Below are positions 31,971 through 55,950 of a DNA stretch of 64,000 nt, one piece after another. The number at the start of each line of letters is the position of its first letter. The stretch's first letter is position 1. The notes beneath the pieces are model-generated. The model was not told where the DNA came from and did no database searches. It was given only the letters and a program-made list of their open reading frames with translations. Source of the DNA: a virus. The stretch is from the UHGV virus genome UHGV-1483955. One strand, written 5' to 3'. A program made the translations under genes and the position numbers.

Positions 31971-31987
31971 ATTGCTCTAATGTATTG
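31971..31987 (+). promoter_or_regulatory. C1 operator-like 17-mer ATTGCTCTAATGTATTG upstream of lpa
   Basis: 13/17 match; position as expected for C1 control of late promoter activator. Confidence 0.6.
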
Positions 31988-32596: not shown

Positions 32597-33790
32597 GTGA
32601 CCTGGGACGATCACAAGAAGAATTTTGCTCGCCTGGCGCGAGATGGTGGTTACACCATCGCACAATATGCCGCCGAGTTTAATCTCAACCCAAACACCGC
32701 ACGTCGTTATCTCCGTGCATTCAAAGAAGACACCGGAACAGCGGACAGCCGTAAGCCAAATAAGCCTGTCAGAAAACCACTAAAAAGCATGATCATTGAT
32801 CACGCTAATGATCAACGTGCAGGTGATCACGTTGTGGCTGAAATGGCTGAAAAACAAAGAGTTAATGCTGTTGTCAGTGCCGCAGTCGAGAACGCGAAGC
32901 GCCAGAATAAGCGCATAAATGATCGTTCTGATGATCATGACGTGATCACCCGCGCCCACCGGACCTTACGTGATCGCCTGGAACGCGACACCCTGGATGA
33001 TGATGGTGAACGCTTTGAATTCGAAGCTGGCGATTACCTGATAGATAACGTTGAAGCGCGGAAGGCCGCGCGCGCTATGTTGCGTCGGTCCGGGGCTGAT
33101 GTTCTGGAAACCACTCTTCTGGAAAAGTCTCTCTCTCATCTCCTTATGCTGGAGAACGCCAGGGATACGTGTATTCGCCTGGTGCAGGAAATGCGCGATC
33201 AGCAAAAAGACGATGATGAAGGTACTCCGCCTGAATACCGTATCGCGAGCATGCTAAACAGCTGTTCCGCGCAGATAAGCAGCCTGATCAACACCATTTA
33301 CAGCATCCGGAATAACTATCGAAAAGAAAGCCGGGAGGCGGAAAAGCACGCTTTGTCTATGGGGCAAGCTGGCATTGTTAAGCTGGCATACGAACGAAAG
33401 CGTGAAAATAACTGGTCAGTGCTGGAAGCAGCTGAATTCATTGAGGCGCATGGCGGGAAAGTGCCGCCCCTGATGCTGGAGCAAATCAAAGCCGATCTGC
33501 GTGCTCCTAAGACCAATACCGATGATGAGGAAAGGCAAACAGCCGTCGGTGGCCCTTCTCTTGAAGATCTGGACAAAGTTGCGCGAGAACGGGCCGCCAA
33601 CCGCCGCGCCGATGCCGCATTGTGGATTGAGCAGCGTAGGGAAGAAATCGCCGATATCGTTGATACAGGCGGTTATGGAGATGTTGATACTGAAGGTGTA
33701 TCAAACGACCCATGGCTGGAACAAGACCTGGACGAAGACGAGGAGGAAGACGAAGAAGTTACCCGCAAGCTATACGGGGATGATGATTAA
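32597..33790 (+). CDS. pacA: terminase small subunit containing the pac site
   Basis: 397 aa; coding sequence embeds the TGATCA hexamer clusters. Confidence 0.85.
32789..32950 (+). other. pac packaging site: 4 plus 3 TGATCA(G) hexamers carrying GATC Dam sites
   Basis: TGATCA x4 at 32789-32831 and TGATCG/TGATCA/TGATCA at 32919-32950 inside pacA. Confidence 0.8.
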
Positions 33791-35274
33791 TGGCCAGAAG
33801 TTGCGTAACGGATCCACGTTGGCGCGAGCTGGTGGCGCTATATCGTTATGACTGGATTGCTGCCGCTGATGTTTTGTTCGGCAAAACACCTACCTGGCAG
33901 CAGGATCTGATTATTGAGTCTGTGCAGGAACAGGGTAGCAAGACATCTGTTTCGTCTGGTCACGGTACCGGGAAATCAGATATGACTTCTATCATGATCA
34001 TGTTGTTCATAATCATGTATCCCGGTGCCCGCGCCATTATCGTTGCGAACAAAATTCAGCAGGTAATGACCGGTATATTCAAGTACATCAAGATAAACTG
34101 GGCTACTGCCACCAGCCGTTTTCCATGGCTTGCTGATTATTTTGTTCTGACAGAAACCGCTTTCTATGAGGTTACTGGTAAAGGTGTATGGACTGTAGTA
34201 CCGAAGGGCTTTCGTCTGGGAAGTGAAGAAGCTCTCGCCGGTGAACACGCAGATCATCTTCTGTATATTATCGATGAAGCCTCCGGTGTCAGTGATAGAG
34301 CTTTCGGTATCATCACCGGTGCTCTTACCGGACAGGATAACCGCATCTTATTACTGTCACAGCCTACACGCCCAAGCGGCTATTTCTACGATACACACCA
34401 TAAACTGGCCAAGCGTCCTGGTAACCCTGATGGCGTTTATACGGCGATCACGCTTAACAGTGAGGAATCACCGCTGGTAACGCCAGCATTTATCAAAATG
34501 AAGCTGGCGGAGTACGGCGGGCGTGATAACCCTATGTACATGATTAAGGTACGCGGCCTATTCCCTAAATCACAGGATGGCTTCCTTCTTGGACGTGATG
34601 AGGTTGAACGTGCAACGCGGCGGAAAGTCAAGATTGCCAAAGGATGGGGCTGGCTTGCATGTGTGGACGTTGCTGGTGGTACGGGACGGGATAAGTCCGT
34701 TATCAATATCATGATGGTGTCCGGCCAGCGAAATAAACGCCGTGTAATCAACTATCGAATGCTGGAATACACAGACGTTACAGAAACGCAGCTTGCCGCC
34801 AAAATTTTCGCAGAATGCAATCCTGAGCGATTCCCAAATATCACCATAGCGATAGACGGCGATGGCCTGGGTAAAGCAACGGCGGATCTGATGTACGAGT
34901 ATTATGGTATTACCGTACAGCGTATACGCTGGGGTAAAAAGATGCATAGCCGTGAAGATAAGAGCCTGTACTTTGATAAACGTGCTTATGCCAACGTTCA
35001 AGCCGCAGAGGCCGTAAAATCTGGTCGTATGAGACTGGATAAGGGTAATGAAACTATTGAGGAAGCGTCGAAAATCCCTGTAGGGATTAACTCCGCAGGT
35101 CAATGGAAAGTGATGAGTAAGGAGGATATGAAGAAAAAACTCAACCTGCACTCACCAGACCATTGGGATACATATTGTTTCGCTATGCTGGCTGATTATG
35201 TTCCCCAGGATGAAGTGCTTAGCGTCGAAGACGAAGCGCAGGTTGATGAAGCTCTGGCATGGCTTAATGAATAA
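33790..35274 (+). CDS. pacB: terminase large subunit
   Basis: 494 aa; Walker A GHGTGKSD, Walker [11 protein letters not shown]; start overlaps pacA stop. Confidence 0.85.
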
Positions 35275-36708: not shown

Positions 36709-36725
36709 TAATTTATTAGAGCAAT
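36709..36725 (-). promoter_or_regulatory. C1 operator (rc ATTGCTCTAATAAATTA) upstream of coi-c1 operon
   Basis: 16/17 match. Confidence 0.7.
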
Positions 36726-39693: not shown

Positions 39694-40335
39694 ATGGATA
39701 AGAAAATATGCGTTGTTTCGATGAGCGTCGGCAAACCGGCGTCAATGACTGCTGCATGGATCAACAACGAGCTGATAATGGCTGAGCGGACCAGCTACCC
39801 TGAACGCCGCCGCGACATGGAACTCCAGCTGCTGCGCGAATTGCGAGAAAAAGAGGAAAAGGGTTTTATCGTGCTGGTGGAAGAGGAAAACAGCTTTATT
39901 ACTGGTCGAGTTGGCCAGCGTGTAAGGTTGCGCGATCCCTTCATGAACGGCAGGCCGGTACTGATTGAAGCAATGCAGATTTACAAGGAGCTGGAACGCC
40001 AGAAAGCGATCAAGTTACCGCGCAAGGAATCCGGCAAATACATCCTCCACCAAAGCATCTTCGATTCCGAACACGATAAAAAAGGCGATGAATTTTTCAA
40101 CATCAACTGGAGCGAAATAACGACAGAGCATGTTCTGACGTTACTATGTTGCTTTGCGACGGAATACAACAACGTTGCCAGCGCAGACTACATCAGGGCA
40201 ATGGCTGGAGAAGTTGAGGCACGCCAGGAACCATCGTTACTAAGCCCTCTGATTAACATAATTCGCGGAACCCAAACGCTGGCACAAAAACAGGTGCCTA
40301 AGGGAGTATTAACAGGAAAAGGAAATTATCTATAA
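39694..40335 (+). CDS. mat: hypothetical protein at the position of P1 maturation control gene
   Basis: 213-aa ORF after a terminator-like hairpin; symbol by recalled synteny only. Confidence 0.45.
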   Translation: MDKKICVVSMSVGKPASMTAAWINNELIMAERTSYPERRRDMELQLLRELREKEEKGFIVLVEEENSFITGRVGQRVRLRDPFMNGRPVLIEAMQIYKELERQKAIKLPRKESGKYILHQSIFDSEHDKKGDEFFNINWSEITTEHVLTLLCCFATEYNNVASADYIRAMAGEVEARQEPSLLSPLINIIRGTQTLAQKQVPKGVLTGKGNYL

Positions 40336-40391
40336 ACGTCAATGCATTAGGGTATACTTCTCCGTAGAACTATAAGTAAATGGAGTAAGTA

Positions 40392-41696
40392 ATGAGCGAG
40401 TATATAGAAATTGCCTATGCAGCAGCTACACATAGGCTGTGCTTTCTTACAGGCACTGGATTTTCAAAGGCTGTTTCTGATGATAAAGCCCCAAGTTGGC
40501 AATCTTTATTGGAGCAACTGTGCGGTTTATTGAAGGATGGTGACTCACTCAAAGAGGAATTATTTCCTGATGGAAAAGCAAAAGACCTTAGCCTTGAAGA
40601 GGCTGCTCAGGTTATTGCACTAAAATTTATACTTTCGGGGAAAAATATTTACCAGGAGATTGAGAAAATCATAGCCTCAATCGAACTTGATCCATCAATT
40701 GAATATATTCAAGACTTTTTCAAAGAAAACACATTTAAAGTAATTACGACAAATTATGACAAGTTAGCAGAAAAACTGGCTGGAGAGAATCGAACGTGTA
40801 CAATCACCCCCGGCCTGCCAATTCCAAAATATAATTGTGAGGTTAAAGTCTACCATGTTCACGGCTCTATAGACTCCCCATCAGATATGGTTGTTACTAG
40901 CGAGGATTATTTCAGATTTATAAATGGTAATTCTTACTTTTCAAATAAACTAAGCACAGTTCTACATGAAAACACTATTGTTATTCTTGGCTATTCTCTA
41001 AGTGACGCGAACCTCAAGGCGATTATAAATGAATATAAGGTGTTTTCACGGGACAACGTAATGTCCTCCAATATTTTCCTTATTTCCCGAGGAAAACTAT
41101 TGCAACCTATTAAAGATTACTATTTTTCCTGCTTTGGGATTAGGGTTATAGATAAAACAGAGGTGTCTGATTTCTTTAGAAAACTTAACAAGAAAATTCC
41201 AGAAGCAAAAAAAATAAAAGACAAATTGAGGCACTCAATCAAATCGGTAATAAAAAACGGAAGAGAGTATAAAATAGAGTTCTTGAAGTTAGAGGATTCT
41301 TTTTATCATATCATTTCCTCCATTTCATCATCTGGATATAGCTGGAATGATGAAAAGGTATTAAATGTTTTTTGTGATATAATAGATAAAAAAATAGATC
41401 TTACTAAAGAGTCTGGCGCATGGGAGCAGTATGAACACCTGGCAAAATGGCTTATTTATTTCGGTAGTTTATTTGAAGTAAAAGGAACCAACTTTGAGAA
41501 AAAATACATACATGCGGTTGAACACTCAATGACTTATATGAATAAACCTTACGAAACAGGCTACTCATGGCGAGCATATCTAGCCTGGAAAACAAAATGG
41601 CCTTCACTGACAGCATCTAACCGCTCTCTTATTAAGAGTAAGATGGAAGAAATCCCGCTACAACAGATTCACGATATTATATCTAAGTTTATATAG
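40392..41696 (+). CDS. SIR2-like (sirtuin-fold, putative NAD+-consuming) protein with uncharacterised C-terminal helical domain; candidate antiphage effector
   Basis: SIR2_2-type motifs CFLTGTGFSKA, ITTNYDKL, YHVHGS, VVTSEDY, IVILGYSLSDANL; gene visibly AT-rich versus flanks; GGAG SD 6 nt upstream of ATG. Confidence 0.8.
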   Translation: MSEYIEIAYAAATHRLCFLTGTGFSKAVSDDKAPSWQSLLEQLCGLLKDGDSLKEELFPDGKAKDLSLEEAAQVIALKFILSGKNIYQEIEKIIASIELDPSIEYIQDFFKENTFKVITTNYDKLAEKLAGENRTCTITPGLPIPKYNCEVKVYHVHGSIDSPSDMVVTSEDYFRFINGNSYFSNKLSTVLHENTIVILGYSLSDANLKAIINEYKVFSRDNVMSSNIFLISRGKLLQPIKDYYFSCFGIRVIDKTEVSDFFRKLNKKIPEAKKIKDKLRHSIKSVIKNGREYKIEFLKLEDSFYHIISSISSSGYSWNDEKVLNVFCDIIDKKIDLTKESGAWEQYEHLAKWLIYFGSLFEVKGTNFEKKYIHAVEHSMTYMNKPYETGYSWRAYLAWKTKWPSLTASNRSLIKSKMEEIPLQQIHDIISKFI

Positions 41697-41705
41697 TATA
41701 TTTAT

Positions 41706-41732
41706 CTCCGGCCTAATCTCCCTAGGCCGGAG
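41706..41732. terminator. perfect 10-bp hairpin CTCCGGCCTA-ATCTCCC-TAGGCCGGAG between convergent genes
   Basis: Perfect inverted repeat right after SIR2-like stop and before minus-strand gene end. Confidence 0.6.
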
Positions 41733-41737
41733 AGTTC

Positions 41738-41986
41738 TTAATCAGCATTCAGGAGCAATGCGTTATCTATGATGATCTGCTCCCATTCCTCGAATGCCCG
41801 GTCGCGGACGCCCTGGGGAACGCTGTTAGTTTTGAAATCGACGACCGTCCGCCATTTTCCGTCCGGACGGTACATGCGCAGAGCTTTACTTCCCCCTTCC
41901 CTGCGCACCTCAACGTTATGCTTGTCAGCAAACTCTTGTAATGCTCGTAGCGTCCCATGCTTTACTGTGTAGTATCGCTTTTTCAA
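41738..41986 (-). CDS. lxc: small protein, possible C1 co-regulator
   Basis: 82-aa ORF, last gene of darB operon; symbol by recalled synteny and size. Confidence 0.45.
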   Translation of the reverse strand: MKKRYYTVKHGTLRALQEFADKHNVEVRREGGSKALRMYRPDGKWRTVVDFKTNSVPQGVRDRAFEEWEQIIIDNALLLNAD

Positions 41987-42423
41987 GTTTTCTCTCCAGC
42001 CTGTGCCAAGGCTTCAACTTCCAAATCGTAAGACTCAAACTCATAGTCCTGGTCGTCAACTTCTTCAGGCACTGGCAGTAAATGCCAGGCTGAGTATATC
42101 TGACCATTATCAAAACGCTCCTGGCTGTAGAGCGTCGCGGCTATGAGTGTTAGCGCCGGGCGGTCATAACGGTAAATTTTGCGAACGTCACGGTCAACGA
42201 GACGACCGAAATTACCATAACCGCGCTCCAGTAATAATTTTTTAATTTCCGGCCAGTATGGACCATAGCTGCGGTACAGGCGGGGATTTTTCAGTAATCG
42301 CCCGCGTAGCCCTGACAGGAAGAAATCAACGTATTCGTCTTCTGTCTTTCCTAACAACGCTGTACGGAGTACCGCCTCAAGATATGTTTTATTCGGTTTT
42401 ATTGTATCAGATAGTGTGGCCAT
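41983..42423 (-). CDS. ulx: hypothetical protein upstream of lxc
   Basis: 146-aa ORF overlapping lxc start by 4 nt. Confidence 0.45.
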   Translation of the reverse strand: MATLSDTIKPNKTYLEAVLRTALLGKTEDEYVDFFLSGLRGRLLKNPRLYRSYGPYWPEIKKLLLERGYGNFGRLVDRDVRKIYRYDRPALTLIAATLYSQERFDNGQIYSAWHLLPVPEEVDDQDYEFESYDLEVEALAQAGEKT

Positions 42424-53004: not shown

Positions 53005-53021
53005 ATTGCTCTAATTAATTT
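53005..53021 (+). promoter_or_regulatory. C1 operator-like 17-mer ATTGCTCTAATTAATTT upstream of ssb
   Basis: 16/17 match. Confidence 0.7.
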
Positions 53022-53040: not shown

Positions 53041-53529
53041 GTGGCACAACGCGGTGTAAACAAAGTCATCCTGATTGGTACCCTGGGGCAAGACCCGGAG
53101 ATCAGGTATATACCAAATGGCGGCGCAGTCGGAAGACTCAGCATCGCAACGAATGAATCATGGCGCGATAAGCAAACGGGCCAACAGAAAGAGCAAACAG
53201 AATGGCATAAAGTCGTTTTGTTCGGAAAACTTGCTGAAATTGCGAGTGAGTATTTACGAAAAGGTTCTCAGGTCTACATCGAAGGGAAACTTAAAACCCG
53301 TAAGTGGACTGATGACGCCGGTGTAGAACGTTACACGACGGAAATTATCGTCAGCCAGGGCGGCACCATGCAAATGATCGGCACTCGCCGCGACGATTCA
53401 CAGTCCTCAAATGGCTGGGGGCAGTCAAACCAACCTCAAAACCACCAGCAATACAGCGGTGGCGGCAAACCTCAGAGCAGCGCCAATAACGAACCTCCAA
53501 TGGACTTTGAAGACGATATTCCGTTTTAG
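53041..53529 (+). CDS. ssb: single-stranded DNA-binding protein
   Basis: OB-fold N-terminus, Gly/Gln-rich linker, C-terminal DDIPF tail. Confidence 0.9.
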
Positions 53530-53731: not shown

Positions 53732-54520
53732 ATGACAGCACAAAATACTAAAACCATTCAATACCGCCTACGTAATGGCCAGAGTGTCGAAGTGACCATC
53801 AATAATGATGGAGTACCTGGCGAAAAGGTTTCTATCTCTGATCTGGCTATCGAAAAAACCATCATGTGCCACCTTGGCTTTACTGAAGAAGTGAGCAAAA
53901 AGCATGGTGTAGCAATCTGGAGCGCAATGGATACTGGTATGCGCAAATTCATTACTGCTCGTACCCCAGGGATGACCATGATGGACCTCATGCAGATTGC
54001 GCCGCTGTTTGAATGTGAGCCTTTAGATGTATTCAGCAATCCAGCTATCTGCCAGCAGTTATATGGTGAGATGAAACTCGCGGTTACCCCCATTGTGCTG
54101 CATGAAGGATCGCTTGCTGGCGTGTGGAAAGTAGAGCGTATTTCAAGCTACATGCCTTTCCATGTCAACGGCGTAATCACTGGTGAAAATCAACCTGTTT
54201 CCGTTATAAAGTCAGACCTCAAGCGCGCAATTCTTGAAGCAAGTTGTCGAGTTGTCGGCCTGGGCAAACAGTCTTATGTTTCCTTCCCGGCTGGCCCTGA
54301 AGGCCCGGCAGAAATTCTGATCATGGATGCCGATCTGCTATGGCAAATACAGTTTCTGATTGGCAAAAGCATCATCCGCGCTGAAGAACTCGATCAGTAC
54401 ATTACCTGCACGATGACGGATGAAGTCAAAAGTGTGGCTATAGCCAATGCCCGGAACCTATGTCGTGCTGCATTAACAGAACTGCAAGAAAACACCACGG
54501 AAGAGGTGGAAAGTGATTAA
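53732..54520 (+). CDS. hypothetical protein (262 aa)
   Basis: ORF between ssb and terminase-like paralog; start uncertain. Confidence 0.45.
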   Translation: MTAQNTKTIQYRLRNGQSVEVTINNDGVPGEKVSISDLAIEKTIMCHLGFTEEVSKKHGVAIWSAMDTGMRKFITARTPGMTMMDLMQIAPLFECEPLDVFSNPAICQQLYGEMKLAVTPIVLHEGSLAGVWKVERISSYMPFHVNGVITGENQPVSVIKSDLKRAILEASCRVVGLGKQSYVSFPAGPEGPAEILIMDADLLWQIQFLIGKSIIRAEELDQYITCTMTDEVKSVAIANARNLCRAALTELQENTTEEVESD

Positions 54521-55607
54521 TCGTATACAGAATGAATCTGCCTGGTTAGCACTGATAGAACGGTATAAAGACAATTGGGAACTGGCAGCAAAAGAGTTGC
54601 TTGATATTGAGTTAACACCTCATCAAGCAAAAATTATTAACGCGATAAAGAACACCGGAGCCAAAATCACTGCCACCACACCACATGGTATTGGGGAAAC
54701 CTCTATTGTGGCAGTGATTAGCATCCTGCAAACAATACTGTATTCGTGTTCCCGTACAGTGGTTGTTTCTCCTGCGATTAACGATTGTCGAAAAACAATA
54801 ATTGACTATATGTTCCGTTATTGGGAGCGAGTTACCCAAAAACACACTTTTCTTGGCAATTATTTCAGAATACACCCTGACAAAGGGTTGGTGCATATCA
54901 GTGAAACATGGGGATGCGTCTATATAACCTATTGTCTGAATAACGAAGAGTCTCTGGCTGGTTTTACTGGACCGCACGATCTTTTCATCGTTATTAACTC
55001 GGCGGAAATCAGCGATCGCGCTCATGCAGTGATAACTGGCAATTTAACCAATTATGACTCGCGCCTGCTGTTGCTGTCGAAACCATCGGAACGCGAGAAA
55101 GGGTACTTTTATGATTCGCATCACCGGTTGGCCCATAGTAAAAACAATCCTGCTGGTTTTTTCACGGCGATAACTCTAAACACAGAGGATTCACCTCTCG
55201 TTTCTGAAGCATATCTTGAATTCAAAGCCAAAGAGTTTGGTGGGCGCAATAGCGATGAATATCGCCGATTGATCTTGGGGAAATTCCCAGGGATTCGGGA
55301 GTTGATGGAAAAGTCATCTGTTCCCCGTAATATGCACTTCACAATGACTGACGGTAGTAAATGGGTAGTGCCTACGATCGTGATCGCCAAACACCATGCG
55401 AAACATCACGCTCAAAAACACAACTCCAGCACATTAGACTGGCTGAAGGCCTATACAATACCGTTATTCTCGGCAAACCATAACGCTATAACTGAATGGG
55501 CTAAACAAATCCCCTGGCAGGATGTGGCTGAAGAGGCATTTGTCGAAAAACCACCAAGAGATATGCACGAGCACTGTTGGCTGACATCAGAAAAGAGTTT
55601 CTCGTGA
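54513..55607 (+). CDS. terminase large subunit-like paralog with degenerate Walker A/B motifs
   Basis: Homology to pacB product (GYFYDSHHRLA, FTAITLNTEDSPLV, LLLLSKP) but Walker A GKS replaced by GET and Walker B DE replaced by NS; GTG start with GAGGTGG SD. Confidence 0.6.
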   Translation: MINRIQNESAWLALIERYKDNWELAAKELLDIELTPHQAKIINAIKNTGAKITATTPHGIGETSIVAVISILQTILYSCSRTVVVSPAINDCRKTIIDYMFRYWERVTQKHTFLGNYFRIHPDKGLVHISETWGCVYITYCLNNEESLAGFTGPHDLFIVINSAEISDRAHAVITGNLTNYDSRLLLLSKPSEREKGYFYDSHHRLAHSKNNPAGFFTAITLNTEDSPLVSEAYLEFKAKEFGGRNSDEYRRLILGKFPGIRELMEKSSVPRNMHFTMTDGSKWVVPTIVIAKHHAKHHAQKHNSSTLDWLKAYTIPLFSANHNAITEWAKQIPWQDVAEEAFVEKPPRDMHEHCWLTSEKSFS

Positions 55608-55638
55608 GGTAAAAATCCCGCCAATTGGCGGGATTTCT

Positions 55639-55950
55639 TCAATATACGATCTGGTCTACATGATCACCAAAATCATCGTCGTCGTCGTCCTCATCGCCAC
55701 CATCTACTGCTGGCCAATCAACAAACCAGCCAGCGTAAAGATGCAGCGTTCGGAGAACATCACTTGCGGGAGCATCAAGGGTGTTAACGAATCCCATATA
55801 GCTATTGGGATTTGCCCCAGCTATGGCTTCAGCGATCATGTCCTCGGTAATGTCACCGGAGATAATGCTTAAACGCCCGGAAACTTCTTCATTATCATCA
55901 AATTCGATAATGGCATCTCCGCCTAATGGCGCTGCGATTTTAATCTGCAT
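55639..55950 (-). CDS. acidic small protein, last gene of darA operon
   Basis: 103 aa with poly-Asp tract. Confidence 0.5.
   Translation of the reverse strand: MQIKIAAPLGGDAIIEFDDNEEVSGRLSIISGDITEDMIAEAIAGANPNSYMGFVNTLDAPASDVLRTLHLYAGWFVDWPAVDGGDEDDDDDDFGDHVDQIVY

Follow-up and report, generated by a model that had tools for sequence, protein, structure and literature searches.

A terminase large subunit is generally regarded as an essential, highly conserved protein encoded by one gene copy, and bacteria use it as a signature of infection; what, then, is a second terminase-like gene doing in a phage genome that already carries an intact packaging pair? The question is raised by the viral genome UHGV-1483955, of which a stretch of 64,000 nucleotides (nt) was analyzed, called the window here. 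The window region is that of a P1-like phage-plasmid, in which an intact pacAB pair co-resides with a gene termed psi-terL (positions 54513..55607, + strand). This gene lies about 19 kb downstream of pacAB, in agreement with the initial annotation of the sequence, and the local order lyz, ssb, isaA, psi-terL, hxr, and ddrB is that of P1 relatives. It encodes a 364-residue PacB-derived pseudo-terminase, as assigned from its open reading frame (ORF), BLASTP and PHROG matches, an AlphaFold2 (AF2) model, Foldseek, the ratio of nonsynonymous to synonymous substitution rates (dN/dS), and an exact-sequence look-up. Sequence comparison shows psi-terL to be under selection, optional, paired with isaA, and, in this variant at least, non-catalytic; the gene is apparently confined to P1-like elements and probably expressed early.

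A PacB-like fold without the catalytic motifs

The psi-terL product aligns with the PacB protein of the window over 266 residues with 35% identity (BLASTP E value of 1e-53), far above chance. PacB is the true terminase large subunit (TerL) and represents the parent family of psi-terL. It has 494 residues (33790..35274, + strand) with the Walker A motif GHGTGKS and the Walker B motif LLYIIDE. The preceding gene, pacA (32597..33790, + strand), encodes the pac-site-recognizing terminase subunit, a candidate binding partner of psi-terL. Residues 1 to 265 of psi-terL (54513..55307, + strand) align to PacB residues 11 to 274 and form an ATPase-fold domain with a degenerate nucleotide site. The AF2 model, based on 26 sequences, has a mean predicted local distance difference test (pLDDT) score of 86.8, with values above 90 for most of residues 10 to 260. 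Its best Foldseek matches in the PDB are the ATPase domains of Sf6 gp2, P74-26, D6E, and T4 gp17 (E values down to 5.5e-10), and the model shows the N-terminal ASCE/RecA-like fold of terminase ATPases. Both the BLASTP score and the modeled fold bear out the clear homology across the ATPase core that had been proposed initially.

The Walker A motif of PacB, G-H-G-T-G-K62-S63, aligns with P-H-G-I-G-E62-T63 in psi-terL (remnant PHGIGETS, against GHGTGKSD in PacB; residues 57 to 64; 54681..54704, + strand), with Lys replaced by Glu and Ser by Thr, which is the change from GKS to GET read earlier from the sequence. The initial annotation had named a shift of the motifs as the alternative to their loss. 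Since the P-loop TTPHGIGETSIV contains no Lys or Arg anywhere, the Walker A motif is lost and not shifted, and the alignment indicates loss for the motifs of the window protein in general. For Walker B, BLASTP and MAFFT agree in aligning LLYII-D162-E163-AS of PacB with DLFIV-I161-N162-SA of psi-terL (remnant DLFIVINS, against LLYIIDEA in PacB; residues 156 to 163; 54978..55001, + strand), where Asp is replaced by Ile and the catalytic Glu by Asn. The acidic residues are lost as had been suggested, but the exact change is from DE to IN rather than to NS, the earlier assignment being one residue out of register. The C-motif, SQPT in PacB, reads SKPS in psi-terL and has lost its Thr.

With 364 against 494 residues, psi-terL is indeed about 130 residues shorter than PacB, but it is not plainly truncated: the RNase H-like nuclease half of about 220 residues (PacB residues ~275 to 494) has no counterpart, and an unrelated domain of about 95 residues is found instead. 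What the two proteins share is the N-terminal ATPase fold together with the motifs DPRW...DW..AA, QQ, E-x-LAG, FYDSHH, EDSPLV, YGGR.S..Y, and G.FP. In contrast to PacB, psi-terL is without a nuclease domain and has lost the Lys of Walker A, the Asp and catalytic Glu of Walker B, and the Thr of the C-motif; it has a foreign C-terminal domain, is optional, and is located not beside pacA but after ssb-isaA, in an apparent early operon rather than in the packaging operon. Without the Lys-Ser/Thr pair of Walker A, the Asp-catalytic Glu pair of Walker B, the nuclease, and a position in the packaging module, psi-terL fails the tests that define a TerL and should not be annotated as a terminase; the term that suits it best is terminase-derived pseudoenzyme. 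The idea of an ATPase-dead pseudo-terminase is well supported by the predicted fold, the specific loss of motifs, the clade-wide extent of this loss, and purifying selection.

The start codon is a GTG at 54513 with a GAGG 7 nt 5' of it and an 8-nt overlap with the isaA stop, and four public records annotate a coding sequence of identical length (1,095 nt) at the same place 3' of isaA. The exact protein is deposited as AJF59430.1 (among others) under the label "hypothetical protein," in a database cluster of 851 sequences, and a 100% identical psi-terL is found on the Escherichia coli 1303 plasmid NZ_CP009168.1. It matches PHROG 5902 end to end (E value of 1e-186; "unknown function") and, more weakly, PHROG 2 (phrog_2, TerL; E value of 4.5e-9). 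No Pfam model matches psi-terL or PacB, no profile of Pfam, NCBIfam, or PADLOC matches psi-terL or IsaA, and a sequence search of the PDB yielded nothing useful for psi-terL, IsaA, the profile of the catalytically dead clade described below, or the profile of the C-terminal domain.

In the records MH422554.1 and MH445380.1 (locus L002, 3015-4109), the pseudo-terminase carries the label "terminase large subunit," so that these records seem to hold two terminase genes. This label, found on psi-terL in some GenBank phage records, is a misannotation, and it could mislead terminase-based typing of phage-plasmids.

A C-terminal domain shared with prophage early genes

The foreign C-terminal domain of about 95 residues (residues 266 to 364; 55308..55604, + strand) was missed in the initial annotation. 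It is unrelated to the PacB nuclease and homologous to stand-alone proteins of ~100 residues from prophage early regions; it belongs to no Pfam family, has no known fold, and gives no match in Pfam, NCBIfam, or PADLOC. We found 520 homologues, mostly stand-alone and ~100 residues long. In comparison with 51 family members, the psi-terL domain shows 28 to 38% identity with shared invariant columns, including the invariant core of the family, M-x-D-G-S-x-W...P-L-F...W-A...W.

The ~100-residue family (proteins P0155 to P0271) is large and unnamed, with the consensus ...VTMPDGSKW.VPV.VIA..RA.YYA...PLF...DWA.NNMNW... In both genomic contexts checked (L019, 8001-8342; L022, 8001-8324), its gene is located in a lambdoid prophage between the repressor-side early genes and xis/int, just 5' of xis/int. 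Some phages encode proteins of ~470 to 510 residues that end with this domain (PHROG 17928; BFVD A0A679KCY7), and the psi-terL domain matches PHROG 17928 at positions 407 to 501. Both PHROG 5902 and PHROG 17928 are labeled "unknown function," so membership is silent on mechanism.

The domain behaves as a modular add-on, since the close relative P0005 does without it and P0010 (L024, 8001-9335), a protein of 444 residues, combines the dead ATPase domain with a different, unrelated C-terminal extension of ~180 residues. The neighbors of P0010 are Ead/Ea22, DUF551, and HOT-like early genes.

A clade of Walker-degenerate PacB paralogs

An exhaustive profile search of 1.84 billion representatives returned 1,202 relatives of psi-terL, and the best 143 of at least 200 residues were classified. 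Lys and Asp/Glu-Glu are kept at the aligned Walker positions in 124 of these 143 proteins, most of which have 430 to 580 residues; the Walker A Lys is retained in every one of the 124 active representatives. The remaining 19 lack the Walker residues. Most of these have 244 to 268 residues, corresponding to the ATPase domain alone, and a few have ~365 residues with the psi-terL-type C-terminal domain. The short dead relatives that were checked (P0008, P0009, P0012, P0014, P0043, and P0047) are complete ORFs with a stop codon and downstream sequence or genes, not fragments at contig ends. In IMG/VR, all 39 short homologues (~360 residues from the conserved start) are Walker-degenerate, with at least five substitution patterns, and all 34 homologues of ~500 residues are intact, with GHGTGKS and DEAS. 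The loss of the motifs, whose conservation in relatives had been proposed as a check, is therefore common to the whole clade; the existence of such a wider dead family was not part of the initial annotation. A word-indexed homologue search returned three proteins only, PacB not among them, and two scans of a genome collection of species representatives, one using the close-family alignment and one using P0012, gave no matches.

For a measure of what was kept, we used 38 alignment columns with at least 85% conservation in 30 active PacB-type terminases. The dead clade has lost 17 of the 38, most of them in nucleotide-site motifs and including Walker A (S56, G57, H58, T60, and K62), His153, Walker B together with its catalytic Glu and the adjoining Ser-Gly, Thr193, and Arg194. 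It has kept 18, among them the motifs QQ, E-x-LAG, FYDSHH, SPLV, and G-x-FP. Trp22 (W22) and Arg251 (R251) are invariant in the dead clade only. Such a pattern of columns would fit a protein that keeps the shape and the interfaces of PacB without its chemistry.

Among the dead paralogs (L063 to L066 and P0004, from IMG/VR and Logan contigs), some subgroups have the Lys-Ser/Thr pair shifted by one position, to GIGHKS or GIGQKT, and one subgroup has retained the catalytic Glu (IIVTEAA). All of these may be intermediates or may still bind nucleotide.

Neighbor joining of ATPase-domain sequences places 11 dead paralogs in one clade (bootstrap of 0.97) and the PacB proteins co-resident with four of them in a separate clade (bootstrap of 0.905); psi-terL groups with the other dead paralogs and not with its co-resident PacB. 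Identity is 32 to 39% among the dead paralogs, in comparison with 60 to 69% among the partner PacBs. The tree and these identities point to one old duplication of the ATPase half of pacB, followed by faster evolution at about twice the rate of PacB. Two more Walker-degenerate, ATPase-only paralogs, P0043 and P0138 (L028), group with a different active terminase clade, which may mean that dead terminase domains arose a second time, independently.

All contexts long enough to read are P1-like elements, four of which show pacA-pacB-c1-cre (L010, L014/L015, L018, and L023). The dead family looks tied to the PacAB machinery, not spread across phage types.

Purifying selection on an intact gene

Pairwise dN/dS values among five diverged psi-terL copies are 0.10 to 0.31 overall, 0.12 to 0.41 for the ATPase-like part, and 0.07 to 0.18 for the C-terminal part. 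By this measure, psi-terL is under purifying selection and is a working gene, not a pseudogene. Among the psi-terL matches in PLSDB, 119 of 120 cover at least 80% of the gene, the 21 close copies in IMG/VR are without exception intact ORFs of 364 codons, and intact ORFs persist down to ~30% identity in the dead clade. Disrupted copies are sporadic: the one in phage vB_EcoM-813R1 has a C-terminal frameshift, and the one in an Escherichia albertii plasmid is interrupted by ISEc60. Frameshifts in relatives, which would have marked the gene as decaying according to the initial annotation, are thus limited to rare exceptions, and a pseudogene or relic is rejected on the basis of dN/dS and conservation.

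An optional gene in a two-gene cassette with isaA

Within PLSDB, pacB is found in 617 plasmids and psi-terL in 120 (~19%). Only 3 of ~20 P1-like GenBank phage records have psi-terL, while P1, P7, D6, SJ46, RCS47, and JL22 have PacB only. Comparing canonical P1 with the window, homology ends exactly at the isaA stop codon and resumes ~30 nt past the psi-terL stop. In P1 (NC_005856; L001, 3023-4737, against window positions 54521-55640), psi-terL is sharply replaced by a hairpin, the insertion sequence (IS) IS1, and the unrelated isaB. The same site is hit by ISEc60 in the E. albertii plasmid (L006), and together the two cases make it look like a hot spot of IS insertion and cassette exchange. 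The region isaA-IS1-isaB has been listed as a hypervariable region of P1-like elements, with psi-terL unmentioned (PMC6906374, PMC9603915). In a CRISPR interference study of P1, ssb, isaA, and isaB were non-essential and pacA and pacB essential (PMC10695390). The possibility that isaB of P1 is a remnant of psi-terL was rejected, its match to the C-terminal domain being marginal (E value of 0.05) and a tblastn search of psi-terL against the P1 region being empty.

The gene isaA (53732..54520, + strand) encodes 262 residues (PHROG 2326, "function unknown"), and its stop overlaps the psi-terL start. In divergent relatives (~50% identical), an IsaA homologue (43 to 48% identity) is located within ~110 nt 5' of psi-terL in 17 of the 17 loci long enough to tell (L018, 9208-10014; L023, 7241-7990; L050 to L066); in L018, the isaA homologue overlaps psi-terL. 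These divergent relatives have no ssb or hxr nearby. Since isaA and psi-terL are kept together in divergent loci, they move as one two-gene unit. Neither this pairing nor the accessory, cassette-like nature of the gene was recognized initially. IsaA has so far been known only as an "IS1-associated" ORF of P1 and is seen here as the conserved upstream partner of a pseudo-terminase; it has no match in Pfam, NCBIfam, PADLOC, or the PDB. An interpretation of isaA and psi-terL as a second pair of the pacA/pacB kind was rejected, IsaA having no similarity to PacA.

In L018 and L023, the two divergent loci with listed genes, the neighbors are cre, a dUTPase gene, and a Tad2-like gene (anti-Thoeris family); Tad2-like genes and a dUTPase gene are located directly 5' of isaA and psi-terL (L018, 299-874 and 8515-9201; L023, 6590-7234). 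More distant relatives of psi-terL follow a Ref-like nuclease gene, a radical-SAM gene, or small early genes. Elsewhere in the window, positions 40001-42000 have a G+C content of 0.39, in comparison with ~0.48 to 0.52 in the flanks, and hold a 434-residue ORF (40392-41696, + strand), which is probably another acquired variable-region gene.

Expression context

Upstream of isaA lies ssb (53041..53529, + strand), apparently the first gene of the operon. Just 5' of it, a C1 repressor operator (53005..53021, + strand) corresponds to the P1 site Ossb/Op21, with one mismatch to ATTGCTCTAATAAATTT and in agreement with the P1 annotation of the homologous site. The window has 15 C1 operator matches with up to three mismatches, against 0.24 expected by chance; they include 4330-4346, 20529-20545, 36709-36725, and 53005-53021, and a match with three mismatches at 31971-31987 lies ~600 nt 5' of pacA. 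A simple scan of the stretch from ssb to psi-terL gave no + strand terminator-like site and no strong promoter. The gene is therefore likely to be co-transcribed with ssb. Because a C1-controlled ssb lies upstream with no + strand terminator in between, psi-terL is probably kept under repression in the prophage and expressed early once repression is lifted.

Downstream, psi-terL converges with an hxr-like gene of 103 residues (55639..55950, - strand), where homology to canonical P1 resumes. Between the two, a GC-rich hairpin, CCCGCC-AATT-GGCGGG (55617..55632), was read from the sequence, although it was missed by the simple terminator scan; it is likely a two-way terminator.

Possible functions of psi-terL

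The leading reading, which we consider possible and hold tentatively, is that psi-terL is a non-catalytic mimic of PacB that engages PacA or PacB and modulates or poisons packaging by PacAB. The ATPase half of a P1-type PacB was duplicated long ago, and the copy has lost the residues for ATP hydrolysis and has no nuclease domain; in the window variant, nucleotide binding is probably gone as well because the P-loop Lys is now a Glu. The protein has kept the fold and many PacB-specific motifs and has gained the invariant W22 and R251 as well as a small C-terminal domain from prophage early genes, and it travels as the second gene of a mobile accessory cassette with isaA, here placed 3' of the C1-controlled ssb. 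Being non-catalytic and without a nuclease, psi-terL would have to act by binding. As a mimic of the PacB N-terminal domain, it might act purely by engaging a PacB partner, either PacA or PacB itself, and so restrain or poison both the cleavage of pac and the assembly of the motor. The outcome could be a delay in packaging of its own element or interference with a co-resident P1-like rival. This reading is supported by the PacB-subfamily motifs, which have been kept despite long divergence, and by a distribution that seems limited to elements with PacAB. If psi-terL modulates PacAB, it would offer a handle on how P1 times or restrains pac cleavage, and it might bear on generalized transduction and on the competition among phage-plasmids that spread resistance genes.

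Several points weigh against the packaging modulator. The binding partner and the effect on packaging are ones that we infer, and the gene is located 19 kb from pacAB and not in a late operon. Its optional nature (120 of 617 pacB plasmids; absent from P1 and P7), its position in a hypervariable region (PMC6906374, PMC9603915), and its evolution at ~2 times the PacB rate are features met more typically in conflict genes than in packaging regulators. The subgroups with a shifted K-[ST] pair, and the one that keeps the Glu, may have residual nucleotide binding. The monophyly of the fast-evolving dead paralogs, obtained with a distance-method tree, could in part be long-branch attraction.

The initial annotation had offered a packaging regulator, a decoy, and a structural component as possible roles. 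A virion component is rejected, and any part in virion structure or in the motor is disfavored, because P1 and P7 do without psi-terL and make infectious virions; the apparent C1-controlled early operon argues in the same direction. Of the other two roles, the regulator belongs to the leading reading, and the decoy is its main rival.

A decoy or shield in counter-defense is somewhat unlikely in our estimate. Here, an early, non-activating look-alike of the terminase ATPase would occupy or blunt the sensors Avs1 to Avs3 and Upx before the late PacB appears, with IsaA and/or the C-terminal domain assisting. On its own, the ATPase domain of a terminase is enough to activate EcAvs2 and Upx, Avs2 and Avs3 make contact with the active site and with ATP bound to the terminase, and the ATPase-only paralog vs.8 of T4, with Walker motifs intact, activates EcAvs2 (PMC13601566). 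Since these sensors read ATP and the active site, loss of the nucleotide site could plausibly let a protein be recognized without setting off the sensor, or escape recognition; on the other hand, the loss of ATP might abolish binding by Avs2 and Avs3 altogether and make a poor decoy. The patchy distribution, the hypervariable region, the fast evolution, the mobility of the cassette, and the likely early expression are the signature of an accessory gene. Furthermore, the dar/ddr anti-restriction operon adjoins psi-terL here, a Tad2-like gene is found directly 5' of isaA in L018 and L023, and the C-terminal domain originates in prophage early accessory regions. Nevertheless, no defense or anti-defense family matches (none in PADLOC), and in the literature we found no report of the psi-terL family and no precedent among dead, inactive, or paralogous terminases or terminase decoys. 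In addition, the family seems limited to P1-like elements, whereas useful anti-defense genes usually cross phage types, and a sensor reading the fold would not require the retained PacB-specific motifs. A psi-terL decoy would open a new class of counter-defense. The stronger claim that psi-terL and IsaA form a dedicated immune-evasion device, blinding or soaking up Avs1 to Avs3 and Upx with an early terminase look-alike, is unlikely. If true, this would be the first phage to defeat pattern-recognition immunity with a dead copy of the sensed protein, and the ~100-residue C-terminal family, common in prophage early regions, would be a widespread counter-defense module.

A new function outside packaging and immunity seems distinctly unlikely. 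The fold could serve as the scaffold of, for example, a non-catalytic DNA- or protein-binding factor acting with Ssb or IsaA in early replication or recombination. The operon apparently shared with ssb in the window would suit such a role, as would the psi-terL relative in L010, which directly follows a Ref-like RecA-dependent nuclease gene with a 4-nt overlap, and the clade-specific invariant W22 and R251 point to new constraints. However, the neighbors vary by lineage (ssb, ref, a radical-SAM gene, Tad2/dUTPase), with only isaA recurring, and ssb and isaA are non-essential in P1 (PMC10695390).

Very doubtful is an element-encoded exclusion or defense module, in which psi-terL would sense a packaging component of an incoming phage and IsaA would be the effector. 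A two-gene cassette in the variable island of a plasmid prophage would be a fitting place, such islands often carrying defense genes, and res-mod, phd-doc, and HigB are found near relatives. Yet the C1 operator suggests repression in the lysogen, when a defense gene should be on, PADLOC gives no match, and IsaA has no recognizable effector domain. Finally, a decaying pacB duplicate without function is extremely improbable: the gene is dispensable (P1 and P7 lack it) and occasionally disrupted by a frameshift or ISEc60, but the dN/dS of 0.1 to 0.3, the near-complete plasmid and IMG/VR copies, the intact ORFs to ~30% identity in a well-supported clade, and the high-confidence AF2 model effectively refute a functionless relic.

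Comparison with known systems

A selected, dead, and nuclease-less paralog maintained across divergent P1-like phage-plasmids would amount to a viral pseudoenzyme derived from a packaging motor. Degenerate ATPase-fold subunits beside active paralogs occur in other machines, an example being the delta-prime subunit of the E. coli clamp loader, which keeps its fold and interfaces, has lost the nucleotide chemistry, and acts by binding. The delta-prime subunit is a fixed and essential part of a defined complex, whereas psi-terL is optional. Packaging-interference proteins of satellites, such as Ppi of the phage-inducible chromosomal islands (PICIs) and look-alikes of the terminase small subunit (TerS), also act on terminase by binding, in conflicts between mobile elements. 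In contrast to psi-terL, which the phage itself encodes, these proteins come from satellites and act on the small subunit; in sequence they are unrelated to psi-terL.

The nearest described analogue of psi-terL is the T4 protein vs.8. Like psi-terL, vs.8 is a second terminase paralog that consists of an ATPase domain only, exists beside a normal terminase (gp17), and has been linked to terminase-sensing immunity; compared by its published description only, it differs in having kept both Walker A and Walker B and in activating EcAvs2 (PMC13601566).

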